The notes under the pieces: model-generated
Told to the model about the DNA's origin: nothing
The model's database searches: none
Seen by the model: only the letters and a program-made list of their open reading frames with translations
Shown here: positions 2,281-57,811 of the stretch, one piece after another
Layout of the letters: every line of letters begins with the position of its first letter
How positions within the stretch are numbered: the first letter of the stretch is position 1
Made by a program: the position numbers and the translations under genes
Source: Eledone cirrhosa
Lineage: Eukaryota
Direction of reading: 5' to 3'
Length of the DNA stretch: 64,000 bases
NCBI GenBank assembly: GCA_964016885.1
Contig: OZ024757.1
Coordinates: forward strand, 4,278,001-4,342,000

Positions 2281-2472
2281 CGAAGGAGGTGTGGTAAAGT
2301 ACCAGATGAACCATAACGGACCAGAGTACTCAATACTTAGGGTAGTAGAGTGGGTAAGAAGAAAATATTTAACCCCGATGGCAGAGCTCAAGCCGTTTCG
2401 AGGGCTATTTCTGGAGTCCAGAAATAGCCGTCGAAACGGCTTGAGCTCTGCCGTCGGGGTTAAACATTTTCC
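2281..2472. mobile_element. Short fold-back element (3' half of an HHR) with tail, in (TA)n
   Basis: Arms 2361-2415 and 2417-2471. GAAA-CGGC..GCCG-TC forms an HHR stem III and cleavage triplet. Tail 2281-2360 matches the reverse complement of 29864-29940. Confidence 0.75.
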
Positions 2473-3223
2473 TATATATATGGTAAGTATGGTACCAGGA
2501 AAAGGAGGAATAACTAGGCAGAAAAAATTGGTCAGTGGAGAAATTCATTGAGAGTTCATTCCTTAACATATGTTTCTGTGCAATATCCGTCTACAAGCGC
2601 TGACTGCAAATTCCAAGCTCAATCGCATGCATTACGTAATAAAATATTTCACTTCATCAGAAATAGAAAAAGTTGTTATAGTCGTTGCATTTTTGCAATA
2701 AGTATCACTGCTGACTGCTCCAAGGTATAAGCCACTGGCACACAGAGAAAGTCAGAGTCAAAATGCAAAAATGCAACGACACCACCTTGGGCTATAACAA
2801 TTGTCTCTCTTCTACTGAAGGTACCATTAGGAATCATAGACTTAACCGATGAGTAATTTATAATCGGCATTGGAAATATTCCCAGTATTCCTATCATCCT
2901 TTGCTACCTTCAGCAACGTGTACGAACATCACACTTTATCGCCCTCGTTTCTAAACATCAGGACATTCTATGTCATGGGTCCTTAGTTGACTAATAGATT
3001 TAGGAAGTCTATAGTTCCAACTTGAACATAAAGGACTAATACAGCTCCCATGTGTTTATTGTACATAAACAACTGTCTGGCATTCTCAACGGCTACTGAC
3101 ATGATCACAGAACAACAGTGATAACGAGACCCAATCTGTTTATCATAACAAAATAAATCGATATAGATCATATAGTTATCATAACTATATGATCTATATA
3201 TAATGAACTAAAATAATGAACTG

Positions 3224-3500
3224 ATATACATACATACGTACACACACACATACACACACACAGACATACATGCACACACATATATATGCACACACATACA
3301 TACACACATACAGACACACACATACACGCATATATATATACACATATATACATACATACACACATCCATACACACATACATACAAACACACATCCATACA
3401 CATACATACACACATACATACACACACACATCCATCCATCCATACATACATACATACATACATACATACATACATACATACATACATACATACATACATA
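3224..3500. repeat. Compound (CA)n/(TACA)n microsatellite
   Basis: Direct reading. Confidence 0.95.
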
Positions 3501-4410
3501 CTTTGAAGGATACGCTTTCGCAACCCAAGAATAGGAAATTAACACGAAATACCTGATTCACAAAAGAGATAGGGATGCAGGCAAAACACCTAGATGTGAT
3601 AACAAGTGCAGACCCTGCAGAACTAACATCAAATATGTCACCCATGTCATCAGCAGCTGTACAAAGATGTCATCGCGTTACTATCTACCTATGAGGCATG
3701 ATGTAGTGGCCAAATCACTGTACAATGCAATCCGTAAAAAAGATAGCCCCGATAATAAACACATTAAAAGCTACAGCAATGTGGAAGACATCCATGTACA
3801 TAATATGAAAGTACTGGTGGAATGTAAAAACACCAATAAAATGCAAGCATAACAGACCAGATATTATGATCTGGGACAGGGAAAAGAAAGCATGCACAGT
3901 AGTGGAAGTTAGCTGCCCAGCAGATGCCAATATAATATCAAAGATTAGCGAAAAGGAGAATGATGAGAAATCTGCAGATACTCCACCTTGATTACACCTT
4001 CAGATTTATGCATGTGATTATTGGGGCACTGCGATATGTTAATAATTGCCTCAATACAAATCTTGAGAAACTAGGCTTCACAGTTACAGAAAGAACACAA
4101 CTAGTTAGGAAATTACAAGTACAATCCATTAATGGAACAGTAAAAATATGTAAAACATTCCAAAAATGTTGCATCTAATAACTGTATATACACATGTACA
4201 GATACAAAGCATATACACATGCACACATACAACTCAAAACATCCACATCCACACATACAATAACATCTATATGTACACATGCATGCAGACATGCATATAT
4301 AGTTGATACCTAGTTGATGTGTAAATTCCAATGAGAGAGTTTTGTATTTATGTTAGAAACCGACTCTCTCTCTATTGGCAAAAAATTGTGAAATTATAAA
4401 ACCAGAAGAA
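3501..4410 (+). mobile_element. 5'-truncated, decayed R4/Dong-type RLE non-LTR retrotransposon (copy 1)
   Basis: FEGYAFATQE, CCHC remnant, MSSRYYLPMRHD and PDIMIWD..VVEVSCP RLE motifs across frames. The 3' end ...ccagaagaa abuts (CATA)n. Confidence 0.85.
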
Positions 4411-54603: not shown

Positions 54604-54818
54604 ATGGTGAAGTGTTGATGTAATGGTAGAACAGTGGTCTGGATAACCAAAGATGTGGGTTAGACTCCCATGTACGTCAATACTCATCTTTTTTCATTTA
54701 TCTAAGGGTTCTGAACCCCATTATCAGGCTAAAATTTCTTTAGTCAAAAATACGGTCAAACCTATTCTATTTTCTAATTTCAAACCTGCTCACTGTTTCA
54801 AAACATACTTACTTGTCA
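54604..54818 (+). mobile_element. Degenerate tRNA-headed short element (mirrored at 50165-50378)
   Basis: tgatgtaatggtagaaca..gtgggttagactcccat resembles tRNA D and T arms. Confidence 0.45.
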
Positions 54819-55887
54819 TATATATATATATATATATATATATATATATATATATATATATATATATATATATATATATATATTTGTATTCAGGTTTGAG
54901 GTTCACCACTGTATAGCGCTGGTCTATTCCGTATGGTCAATCGTAATGCAATAATATAGAGAGTACTCAACGTAAAGCAGTTCAACCGTCTTTGTTTTTG
55001 TAGTTGGTGGTGCTATTACGGAGTTAAATATTATAATGAAATGACAGGAGGCTGGATTTGTGTAAATCCTTGAAAGGTTTATTATACTATGATCATTTCA
55101 ATGACCGGGTTCCGTATGAATCCGGTGATATCATCAGGTATTCGAAATATAATACGTGAATGTAATAGGTAAAATCCATGGGGCTGAAAATCGAGACCCG
55201 AGGGCGACCGCTATTCTGTTCCTTCAACCTCAGCCGGTCGCCCTGGAGTGACGTGGCTTGACTGTGGTCTGACATTAATATCGACCTTTCTTCCTCTTTC
55301 TTTCTATCTTCCTTCTTGTAGCCATCAACCCTTACTTTTCTACTTCTCTCTTCCCTTCCTTCTCTTCTCCCCTCCTCCTGTCTTCCTCCCGCAAACTTAT
55401 CTTCCTTCCCCCTCTTGCTTGCCTATATCTGACCAGTAGTAGTTGCCTTCCTCTTTTAGCTGACATTAACCCTGGCTTCTCTTCTTCTTTCTTCCCCCTT
55501 CTTCTCCTTCCTTTCTTTCTTTCTTTTACCTTGTGTCATGGGATCGACGTTAACCTATGCTCCCATCCCTTTCTGTTTTCGTTCATCTGACCGGTAGTAG
55601 CATACTATAAAATTTAGCCACGTCACTCCAGGGCGACCGGCTGAGGTTGAAGGAACAGAATAGCGGTCGCCCTCGGGTCTCGATTTTCAGCCCCATGGAT
55701 TTTACCTATTACATTCACGTATTATATTTCGAATACCTGATGATATCACCGGATTCATACGGAACCCGGTCATTGAAATGATCATAGTATAATAAACCTT
55801 TCAAGGATTTACACAAATCCAGCCTCCTGTCATTTCATTATTATATATATTTGTATGTATGTATGTATGTATGTATGTATTATATAT

Positions 55888-57811
55888 ACCTAGGCTAAAT
55901 ATTGATGCAATTCAATTCAAGCACTCAACGTACTTTTTCCACATATCGAATAAGGAAAAGCGAAGTAGTTTCAAATGTTCAAGTCCTTTAATAATAATAT
56001 ATTTCAATGACGACACTGGCCAAACTGTTCTGTGTGCGAGTGTCGTGACATCATCAGACAGTTTGTTACATACTAAGGTTATGTTTCCGAGGCAATCCAA
56101 ATTGAATCGACATGGGAACGGACGAAGTGTGTGCTTGCTTTTGGGTTCTTCATCCGGCGCATGTCCGAAGGAAGTTGACCATTAGCTACCGCAGATTTCA
56201 ACGAAATTCGCTTAGTCAGTTCACCCTCTCAGCCAAACAATGACCCACTTAGGCCTGTACCATAGTTTACTGCTACCCGTCTTGTCTGTGGCAGTCAGCC
56301 GAAATCCTGAGGGGATGGGAGAGTGTTAGTTTTTTACAGGTCACAATACTACCACTCACCAAGCGTGGACAGTACGACTGACCATCAACTCCTAAGAGAA
56401 AATATACTTAATTCTAGGTATCATGGTTTTACATTGGAAGTTATGAGTGAGAGTTGGAAATAAAAATTAAAATCCTAAATCAAATATCAGAAATTATAAA
56501 TTAAACAATTAAAAAATTAACAATTAGAAATTAAAAAAATTTTCAAGTCAGGATCCGGATTGAGGTGAGTAAAAAAATATAGATTGAAGTGAGTAAATAA
56601 TATGGAGAGAGATGTTTAAGTAAGAAGTTCTGAGAGGAGTTCCAATGTCACAGTTACATTATCCACATATTGAACGATAGTGCCGTACATTAGAACGGAG
56701 TGTAAACTACAGTATTCAAGGCAGTAGTCAATCTGGTACACAGTCATAATTTCCATCACATGGAACAAAACCAAAGAAAAACAGACATAAAGTACACAAA
56801 AGAAAAGAACCAATAATGAATGTACGGCCCTATCGTTCAATGTGTGGATACTGTAACTGTGACATTAGAACCCCTCTCAGAACTTCTTACTTAAACATCT
56901 CTCTCCATATTATTTACTCACTTCAATCTATATTTTTTTACTCACCTCAATCCGGTTTCTCACTTGAAAAAGTTTTTTAATTTCTAATTGTTAATTTTTT
57001 AATTGTTTAATTTATAATTTATAATATTTAATTTAGGATTTTAATTTTTATTTCCAACTCTCACTCATAACTTCCAATGTAAAACCATGATACCTAGAAT
57101 TAAGTTTATTTTCTCTTAGGAGTTGATGGTCAGTCGTACTGTCCACGCTTGGTGAGAGGTAGTATTGTGACCTGTAAAAACTAACACTCTCCAATCCCCT
57201 CTGGATTTCGGCTGACTGCCACAGACGAGACGGGTAGCAGTAAACTATGGTACAGGCCTAAGTGGGTCATTGTTTGGCTGAGAGGGTGAACTGACTAAGC
57301 GAATTTCGTTGAAATCTGCGGTAGCTAATGGTCAACTTCCTTCGGACATGCGCCTGCGCAGACCGGTGGGGGTGAATTGGTACTCACAGGGGAACGGATG
57401 AAGAACCCAAAAGCAAGCACACACTTCGTCCCTTCTAATGTCGATTCAATTTGGATTGCCTCGGAAACATAACCTTATTATGTAACAAGCTATCTGATGA
57501 TGTCACGACACTCGCATACAGAACAGTGTGGCCAGTGTCGTCATTGAAATATATATCACAGCATTATTATTAAAGGACTTGGATTGGCAGTATCGGTAGA
57601 GGGTCTGACGCCATGCTTTGCAGCAAAGAGTTACGCCCCTTTATGGTTTGAGTTCAAATCCCGCCGAGGTTAACTTTGCCTTTCATCCTTACGGGGTCGA
57701 TAAAATAAAGTACCAGTAATGCACTGGATAATTGCTGGCCTTGTGCCAAAAGTAGAAACAATTATTATTAAAGGACTTAAACATCTGAAACTACTTCGCT
57801 TTTCCTTATTC
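55888..57811. mobile_element. Large fold-back element with outward HHRs and tail, interrupted by a SINE
   Basis: Arms 55948-56691 and 56819-57811; HHR at 57489-57562 (+); the left-arm HHR has lost its cleavage site. Confidence 0.85.
57581..57762 (+). mobile_element. tRNA-derived SINE
   Basis: Same family as 15647; target site duplication attattattaaaggactt. Confidence 0.9.

Follow-up and report, generated by a model that had tools for sequence, protein, structure and literature searches.

A covarying hairpin at the ends of Hydra-clade Penelope-like elements in Eledone cirrhosa as a probable docking site for reverse transcriptase

On sequence evidence, the motif GAGTRCT found beside hammerhead ribozymes (HHRs) in this region is one strand of a hairpin, and the signal is this covarying structure, not the bare 7-mer. 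The hairpin is a mark of Penelope-like elements (PLEs) of the Hydra clade and not of Naiads. Two of these hairpins stand before the gene, and inserted copies stop a few bases short of one or the other; the structure is therefore probably an RNA docking site, with the reverse transcriptase (RT) starting cDNA a few bases 5' of either one. The window analyzed here comprises 64,000 nt of Eledone cirrhosa DNA (GCA_964016885.1, contig OZ024757.1, positions 4,278,001-4,342,000 of the forward strand); the comparison set beyond it consists of 91 loci in 74 families, together with public sequencing reads.

In the window, 24 GAGTRCT matches were found against a shuffle mean of 10.6 (shuffle maximum 20), and TYGAGTRCT occurred 14 times against 1.5 expected by shuffling (maximum 5), confirming that the motif lies above background. 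Sixteen of the 24 matches are in hairpins, five are mirror-strand readings of near-palindromic sites, two are unrelated (5027+ and 18964+) and one is at 40729-. A first-pass annotation of this DNA had listed 16 motif sites; all are present within 1-2 nt of where it placed them, and the sense of the motif agrees with that of the adjacent HHR wherever an HHR is present. That annotation put the motif about 35-85 nt from the element end; the next microsatellite lies 38-91 nt away in 14 of 20 curated hairpins, and none lies within 200 nt in the other 6. Its description of the families as unrelated goes too far, although the tails do not align as a single family: flanks of the 20 curated hairpins fall into 13 clusters, BLAST links 2331 to 29889 at 87% and the 11478 group to the 40496 group at 70%, and about 10 families remain after merging BLAST-linked clusters with the second hairpin, H2, set aside. 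In all likelihood the tails descend from a remote common ancestor within a single clade, in which case the motif reflects conservation, not convergence. Nor is the motif a general tail feature of HHR families, being absent from the Neptune/Nematis-type tails at 35126+, 46637+, 31128-, 61437+ and 58090- and from the HHR family 43164+/47738-/48204-; for three Neptune/Nematis-type copies, no fold of the tail was supported.

The hairpin reads RCTC, an inner stem-loop, a UH bulge and GAGY, followed by RCT, so that GAGTRCT is its 3' strand; in the flanks of loci, 96 of the 109 7-mers in sense orientation have an RCTC upstream. Descriptor matches in the sense flanks of outside loci number 99, compared with a shuffle mean of 3.5 and maximum of 6, and the hairpin is present in 46 of the 74 outside families, which were defined at <80% identity. 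The structural covariation that the first-pass annotation had proposed to examine is strong. Among 71 de-duplicated hairpins from outside loci (45 families), the first inner pair is Watson-Crick in 68/71 against a permuted mean of 39.6, the second in 49/69 (20.2), the third in 32/46 (13.1) and the fourth in 21/36 (9.8), while the bulge is TT in 47, TC in 13 and TA in 11. RNAalifold, applied to 18 hairpins, independently gives the same fold, with 20 double-sided changes and a score reached by 0/500 shuffles. On a quick RT tree with 14/34 inner branches unresolved, the first pair of the first hairpin, H1, is paired in 36/36 families, with four switches in which both sides change together. G.U outnumbers A.C in the hairpins by 22 to 10, which favors the sense strand. 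Folding probability exceeds 0.5 in only 10/20 window hairpins, the antisense strands of outside loci fold almost as well (51 vs 56 of 71), and the RCT is unpaired in only 32/71 MFE folds.

Outside loci usually carry two hairpins, H1 and H2, 55-83 nt apart, with H1 34-62 nt past the hammerhead cut site. The last hairpin lies 7-40 nt before the ATG in 32/35 families, giving the order HHR-H1-H2-ATG by sequence, and a strict hairpin stands upstream of 40/50 ORF N-terminus matches (two hairpins in 29) compared with 0/50 in-ORF windows. One family in the window is physically linked to a Hydra ORF. Its pLTR/5'UTR carries a minimal type I hammerhead (50978..51043, -; predicted cut after 50986, 57 nt before H1), then H1 (50907..50929, -; ACTC, 3-bp inner stem, TC bulge, GAGT, GCT; outer stem P=0.99), H2 (50818..50838, -; GCTC, TT bulge, GAGC, GCT; about 20 nt before the ATG) and the N-terminal 52 codons of the ORF (50643..50798, -; tblastn to P0001 3-52, E 3e-6), containing RWRAF, a variant of RWK that appears as RW[KR]A in outside loci. 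This piece is inverted relative to the 5'-truncated ORF at 51243..52973(+), which encodes RT, a CxCX5C linker, a GIY-YIG endonuclease (EN) at the C terminus, CxxC and CxH. The motif YVG..F..RY.NH..SF lies C-terminal to the RT, and by eye the translation shows CNCRDRSKC, CDLC and CKH, corresponding to the Hydra linker and to the CxxC and CxH placed around the conserved E/N, with no CCHH. The DKT region is missing from the truncated ORF, and DKT or DKS is present in most long homologues; the ORF forms a long branch among outside loci on the RT tree, and a Pfam search of it gave no match. The element has a canonical HHR in its pLTR and a (TA)n insertion, and its 3' pLTR (54345..54453, +; HHR at 54353) has a short end that joins (TA)n 5-7 nt before the expected H1 start. 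A second, older ORF fragment with linker and EN lies at 16277..17083(-). Hydra protein matches by tblastn were found in the window only at 50643-50786, 51258-52943 and 16331-17083; for the other ~9 families, which are ORF-less, tblastn found no linked Hydra ORF, and their assignment comes from motif and layout. The Naiad partner named by the first-pass annotation was rejected: the linked ORF carries its EN at the C terminus and is accompanied by canonical HHRs, whereas Naiads have an N-terminal GIY-YIG and, according to Craig 2021 (PMC8557442), no canonical HHRs. Six test 9-mers gave only 2 matches in a Naiad consensus file, both in apparently coding sequence.

Further hairpins were assigned throughout the window. 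The H1 at 20683..20705(-) belongs to the 50913 family and shows a compensatory inner-pair change relative to 50913; its long end stops ~3-8 nt before an H2 near 20622. H1-type hairpins of one family lie at 2325..2351(-), with a TT bulge and a short arm end at 2473, and at 29869..29895(+), with a short arm end at 29823; those of another lie at 12666..12687(+), where the 5' arm register is ambiguous by 6 nt (short arm end 12442), and at 22851..22872(+). Past a degenerate HHR near 10920 is a hairpin with a G.U outer pair (10991..11029, +), copied at 19623..19660(+). Long loops are found past HHR 11297 (11418..11484, +; GAGTGTT variant), in its family copy at 20049..20115(+), past HHR 40329+ (40440..40502, +; short end 39783), where the first inner pair is broken, and past HHR 49852+ (49965..50027, +; 5-bp inner stem, short end 49148), which recurs in an inverted segmental duplicate at 54962..55024(-). 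The ACTT/GAGT hairpin past HHR 48923+ (49024..49070, +) has a duplicate at 55920..55966(-). Also on the minus strand are a hairpin with a 1-nt bulge and 4-bp inner stem past HHR 26186- (26092..26114; short arm end 26283), an ATTC/GAGT variant past HHR 36474- (36333..36361; short arm end 37900) and a GCTC/GAGC variant followed by CCT past the variant HHR 39439- (39319..39367; short ends 12809, 39519, 35936 and 17662). The hairpin past HHR 29581- (29470..29493, -) is decayed, its 4-bp inner stem and TA bulge intact and its 5' arm mismatched, and the GAGTACC site with a CG bulge (30659..30736, +) is a weak variant of uncertain assignment. Of the sites in the first-pass list, 29476-, 40496+ and 30730+ are the decayed, broken and weak ones; the list missed 11023+, 19654+, 54968- and the second hairpin at 50818-50838(-). 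The curated set of 20 hairpins excludes 29476 and 40729, and the 5' arms at 39325, 49064, 55926 and 50824 were assigned by hand, replacing the automatic choice.

Where the elements end is the observation that gives the hairpin its probable role. From 66 mapped junctions, 12 internal-TA cases and 7 in which the reference also ends were removed, leaving 47, or 44 without 3 double counts. In 36/47 (34/44), the element/(TA)n junction precedes H1 or H2 by 1-11 nt, compared with 3.4 expected under a uniform model and 6.0 under a TA-weighted one; several window ends are duplicates and therefore not independent observations. Thirty of the 36 precede H1 (short ends) and six precede H2 (long ends), and both kinds are seen in one window family, which suggests that the optional "tail" is the H1-to-H2 interval. 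By eye, the 10/44 ends away from hairpins comprise four long ends lacking an H2 reference, one beside an unrecognized hairpin, and five explained by misalignment, a 5' junction or an interruption. Public runs include 5321 and 6034 reads passing from element into (TA)n at the foot of H1; contig depth drops from 283,340 to 1,157 between 50856 and 50841, H2 starting at 50838, and clipping of RAD reads is seen at 50864, which is 26 nt short of H2. A TA-rich tract lies just upstream of the hairpins (at -12..-1 the mean alternating AT run is 3.93 vs 2.98 shuffled), junction microhomology averages 3.4 nt vs 0.95-1.77, and 1-8 extra bases are present at 13/34 junctions. The few mappable 5' junctions are also at hairpins, at -3 (L049) and +1 (L085) of H1, -13 of H2 (L016) and, by eye, about -4 of H2 (L008); a model of initiation only does not predict them. 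The published Hydra-1_Ajap consensus begins 2 nt before H1. The earlier suggestion of a shared cis signal at PLE ends is supported and becomes more specific: a covarying hairpin present twice, with ends just 5' of either copy.

Under the docking model, a tandem transcript would read through the downstream pLTR, H1 and H2 included, and the RT/EN protein would bind the UH bulge, GAGY helix and RCU of either hairpin. Genomic (TA)n nicked by the EN would provide a 3' end that anneals to the UA tract lying 3-10 nt upstream of the hairpin and primes cDNA, while the bound hairpin stays uncopied. A start at H1 would yield the short end, and a start at H2 the long end containing H1, which is the optional PLE tail. 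The short, ORF-less elements that bear the hairpin would then be copies relying on this signal, either truncated or non-autonomous. Weighing against the model are the 5' junctions at hairpins, the clip position of the RAD reads, the extra bases at 13/34 junctions and the folding figures given above.

The RT, endonuclease and transcription roles of the hairpin are not told apart by sequence alone. It is unlikely, in our estimation, that the GIY-YIG endonuclease instead recognizes the hairpin in single-stranded or extruded DNA and makes its cut in the TA tract immediately upstream, either to resolve a longer cDNA or as homing to the element's own pLTR. Cutting there would place both 5' and 3' boundaries beside the hairpin, as the 5' junctions would fit; covariation cannot tell RNA from ssDNA, and the AGYRCT core is near-palindromic. 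Penelope EN is reported to need the tail for recognition and cleavage (PMC11167929), and the tail is ascribed to EN-mediated resolution (Craig 2021, PMC8557442). This reading is weakened by the sense-strand bias of G.U over A.C, by Poseidon genomic ends that equal RT start sites (PMC11167929) and by the commonest cores, AGCACT and AGTGCT, which are imperfect palindromes. A pure palindromic dsDNA site is disfavored.

It is distinctly improbable that the hairpins define RNA ends, through transcription start, termination or cleavage just 5' of each, with the RT merely copying from those 3' ends. Full-length copies do start at H1 or H2, as expected of a TSS, RT start sites match the ends of Anolis RNA-seq reads (PMC11167929), and PLE pLTRs contain the promoter (Craig 2021, PMC8557442); but with H2 placed mostly 7-40 nt ahead of the ATG, protein-making transcripts must read through the hairpin region, and TA microhomology together with in vitro internal initiation (PMC11167929) requires no pre-cut RNA. 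A purely 5'UTR role in translation or as a promoter, with ends clustering merely because of the TA-rich tract, would account for that tract and for the fixed ATG distance in 32/35 families, but is very hard to reconcile with the excess of observed ends over the TA-weighted expectation and with H1 being conserved as well as H2 despite its greater distance from the ATG. Several window sites are mutual copies, as passive homology within one young family would produce; this explanation, or chance, is largely refuted and scarcely credible given the hairpin's occurrence in 46/74 families at <80% identity with compensatory changes, and among consensi already published from coral, sea cucumber and copepod.

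Rfam searches gave no matches at E<=0.5 in the 17 of 91 outside loci that they covered and, among 150 of 174 window matches listed, no ribozyme and no family covering the hairpins, most being models of miRNAs placed on TA repeats; the minimal HHRs, too, went undetected by Rfam, indicating limited sensitivity. No relatives were found among viral contigs, and a search of openly accessible literature text turned up no description of the hairpin. The closest known group is the Hydra clade of C-terminal EN+ PLEs, which in available sections of Craig et al. 2021 (PMC8557442) has the same ORF features, canonical or minimal HHRs and (TA)n insertion. By eye, published Hydra consensi carry the hairpin exactly in Hydra-2_Amil, Hydra-1_Ajap (twice) and Hydra-2_Ajap and as a variant in Hydra-1_Amil and Hydra-1_Crog; it is absent from Hydra-1_Obim, which ends short. 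Those sections mention no hairpin and give a 30-40 bp tail with EN resolution, whereas the H1-H2 interval here is 55-83 nt. Work on minimal HHRs of PLE pLTRs and non-LTR retrozymes (PMC4209133, PMC7229834, bioRxiv 10.64898/2026.07.22.740005) describes similar adjacent HHRs and ORF-less derivatives, but its available text covers the ribozyme only, with no downstream cis hairpin. In the Poseidon PLE PAc, RT starts internally at two sites bounding the tail (Frangieh et al. 2024, PMC11167929), and the likeness extends to their position downstream of an HHR near a stem-loop and to AT-rich targets. However, PAc starts inside the ORF at an AC-rich stem loop, its start site is not homologous to the cut DNA, and this single in vitro PLE study defined no conserved motif or RNA determinant, whereas here, judged from genomic ends only, the 5'UTR holds two copies of a covarying motif, with ends upstream of the motif and TA microhomology.

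PLEs are the closest retroelement relatives of telomerase RT, and their internal start-site choice and one-sided tail are a standing question, to which a ~25-nt covarying motif at both end positions, in dozens of families plus published coral, sea-cucumber and copepod elements, is relevant. The hairpin offers a precise mutational target for separating the RT-docking, EN-resolution and RNA-end models, and, in practice, a marker by which Hydra-clade elements and their ORF-less derivatives can be annotated and their true boundaries fixed. In telomerase RNA, template-positioning elements use structure to hold this sister-lineage RT at a set spacing from an internal template that includes a short tract for primer alignment, and a boundary element 5' of the template stops copying. 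The present hairpin differs from that boundary element in lying 3' of the start, and the likeness is one of layout. More tentatively, hairpin and upstream UA tract may form a telomerase-RNA-like module, in which the hairpin would anchor the RT and the tract align the nicked (TA)n primer, template pairing adding to microsatellite targeting; two modules would make up the PLE tail, module-to-module copying of tandem or circular RNA would set both unit-length ends, and any RNA with the ~35-nt module could be mobilized in trans.

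The window's DNA is of animal type and AT-rich (35% GC), and is dense in (TA)n microsatellites and PLE debris. In it, GAGTRCT was matched 24 times compared to 10.6 times in shuffled sequence (maximum 20 in 100 shuffles), and the stricter form TYGAGTRCT 14 times compared to 1.5 (maximum 5). The first-pass annotation had described GAGTRCT as a conserved signal in the tails of unrelated hammerhead (HHR) families; every site it listed was found, the enrichment over background is borne out by these counts, and the motif does run in the sense of the neighboring HHR. Of 20 curated sites, 14 lie 38-91 nt from the next microsatellite, and the remaining 6 have none within 200 nt. 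Clustering of the window sites gave about 10 families, not 16. Two other HHR groups of the window lack the motif, one being the HHR family at 43164 and the other the tails that belong to ORFs of Neptune/Nematis type (44247-46289, 58659-61173).

Nearly every window site is preceded by an RCTY that forms base pairs with GAGY, the two enclosing a 2-nt bulge and a variable inner stem-loop. A descriptor of this hairpin gave 14 window matches compared to 0.71 in block shuffles, a count that is not independent because the descriptor was derived from the same sites. The GAGTGCT at 40723-40729(-) has no pairing 5' arm, and the distance to a TA run is about 100 nt. Additional searches covered 91 Hydra-like PLE loci, which form 74 families at 80% identity and derive from metagenomes and from contaminants in MAGs; of 423 confirmed metagenome matches, the best 80 were retained. 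L079-L091, eukaryotic PLE contigs within bacterial MAG records, are most likely host contamination. Sense flanks of the loci contained 99 descriptor matches compared to 3.5 in shuffles, spread over 55/91 loci and 46/74 families; antisense flanks contained 28, many of which mirror the near-palindromic core. A strict hairpin was detected upstream of 40 of 50 ORF N-terminus matches (3 of the 50 being spurious), and in 0/50 in-ORF and 2/50 antisense control windows. Among the Hydra consensi in the portion of the PMC8557442 supplement compared by eye, the hairpin is exact in 3/6 and variant in 2/6, and the remaining one ends short. Across the whole supplement, where line breaks conceal about 1/9 of occurrences, six test 9-mers yielded 8 matches: 4 in Hydra hairpins, and 2 Naiad and 2 Chlamys matches in apparently coding sequence.

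Structure-blind extraction from the loci recovered the upstream RCTC at 96/109 sites. In 71 de-duplicated locus hairpins, inner pairs 1-4 are Watson-Crick in 68/71, 49/69, 32/46 and 21/36 cases, each count exceeding every one of 10,000 permutations, and slid partners give far lower pairing scores. RNAalifold, run on 18 hairpins picked for similar length, reproduced the fold with a covariation score of 0.42 compared to 0.14 when shuffled. In a quick RT tree covering 36 families, pair 1 of H1, the first hairpin between HHR and ATG, changed four times, both partners jointly. The outer pair is mostly A-U in the window and G-C in the loci, with G.U intermediates, and variant locus hairpins carry GAGCTCT or a GCAC/GTGC outer stem. 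Predicted stability is modest: fold probability exceeds 0.5 in 56/71 locus and 10/20 window hairpins, and antisense strands are predicted to fold nearly as well as sense.

One window hairpin family could be tied to a protein. In minus-strand order, the HHR cut (50986) is followed by H1 (50929-50907), the second hairpin H2 (50838-50818), and an ATG (50798) opening the ORF N-terminus. An adjoining ORF (51243-52973, +) encodes a C-terminal GIY-YIG, a CxCX5C linker and CxxC/CxH motifs, which the sections of Craig et al. (2021, PMC8557442) drawn on here give as defining features of the Hydra clade. The same sections describe Naiads as without canonical HHRs; Naiad, whose protein the first-pass annotation named for assays of the motif, was rejected as partner. 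Near-identical inverted copies flank this element (48334-50440 and 54543-56646), and either recent duplication or an artefact of assembly may account for them; tRNA-like Rfam matches (31 bits) at 50304-50374(-) and 54609-54679(+) are probably a tRNA-derived SINE head. Two unrelated HHR-plus-hairpin units form a tandem composite at 10909-11574 and 19541-20205, its first HHR having G in place of C3, and altered-core HHRs (CAGAAGA, in two copies, and CTGCTGA) occur at 39439(-), 36006(-) and 20811(-). At 7020-10543(+) and 3501-5629 are long frames for a non-LTR RT (RVT_1 E 6e-19); they contain in-frame stops and have a C-terminal zinc-finger/nuclease-like region.

H1 begins 34-62 nt downstream of the HHR cut (31 families), H2 lies a further 55-83 nt on (23 families), and in 32/35 families an open-frame ATG follows the last hairpin at a distance of 7-40 nt. 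Mapping to references gave 66 (TA)n junctions. Of these, 47 were counted as true ends, and 36 of the 47 fall 1-11 nt upstream of a hairpin, 30 before H1 and 6 before H2, compared to 3.4-6.0 expected; the proportion is 34/44 without double counts and 19/24 in the loci alone. Both end types occur in one window family, the 30158- and 54353+ copies stopping before H1 and the 20689- copy just before H2. At the foot of H1, 5321 and 6034 reads with the same species label pass from the element into (TA)n. Contig depth drops sharply within 18 nt upstream of H2, and RAD reads clip elsewhere, at 50864. Alternating TA is enriched in the 12 nt upstream of a hairpin, and mean junction microhomology is 3.4 nt (21 clean junctions of 34). 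In full-length copies, 5' junctions are seen at or just before H1 or H2 at L049:989, L085:2386, L016:966 and L008:477.

Two ends, one short and one long and about 55-60 nt apart, are seen in the Neptune/Nematis-type families as well (30872-30965(-), 61650-61746(+) and 23136-23225(-); short ends near 35325, 46823 and 57844). Their tails share a conserved sequence of their own, GTTTCRACACACG ... GCWAAAC, in which neither a supported fold nor GAGYRCT was found, and which is possibly a clade-specific analogue of the hairpin. The HHR family at 43164(+), 47738(-) and 48204(-), with no linked ORF or hairpin motif in the window, carries GCTAAAC at its end, as in Neptune-type tails.

The simplest reading, and in our judgment a reasonably probable one, is that, for the Hydra clade, H1 and H2 determine where RT starts internally. 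The RT would dock on a hairpin, nicked (TA)n may pair with the UA tract to prime synthesis, and copying would begin 5' of the docked hairpin, such that use of H2 would retain H1 in the tail. The few mappable 5' junctions also lie at hairpins, which counts against a pure initiation model and keeps two alternatives alive: that the EN cuts beside a DNA hairpin, which we regard as unlikely, and that the hairpins define RNA ends, which seems less likely still.

The PLE element class, its HHRs and its tails are already known, as the parts of the literature used here attest (PMC8557442, PMC4209133, PMC7229834, PMC3846280, bioRxiv 10.64898/2026.07.22.740005). No description of the hairpin or its tie to element ends was found in the openly accessible literature, and Rfam yielded no family describing it among the window matches listed or in the 17 of 91 loci searched (E<=0.5). 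The hairpin is a real, clade-specific and apparently undescribed structured cis element. For a Poseidon PLE, Frangieh et al. (2024, PMC11167929) showed internal RT start at two sites that bound the tail, and H1 and H2 would be the determinants of sites of this kind in Hydra-clade elements.
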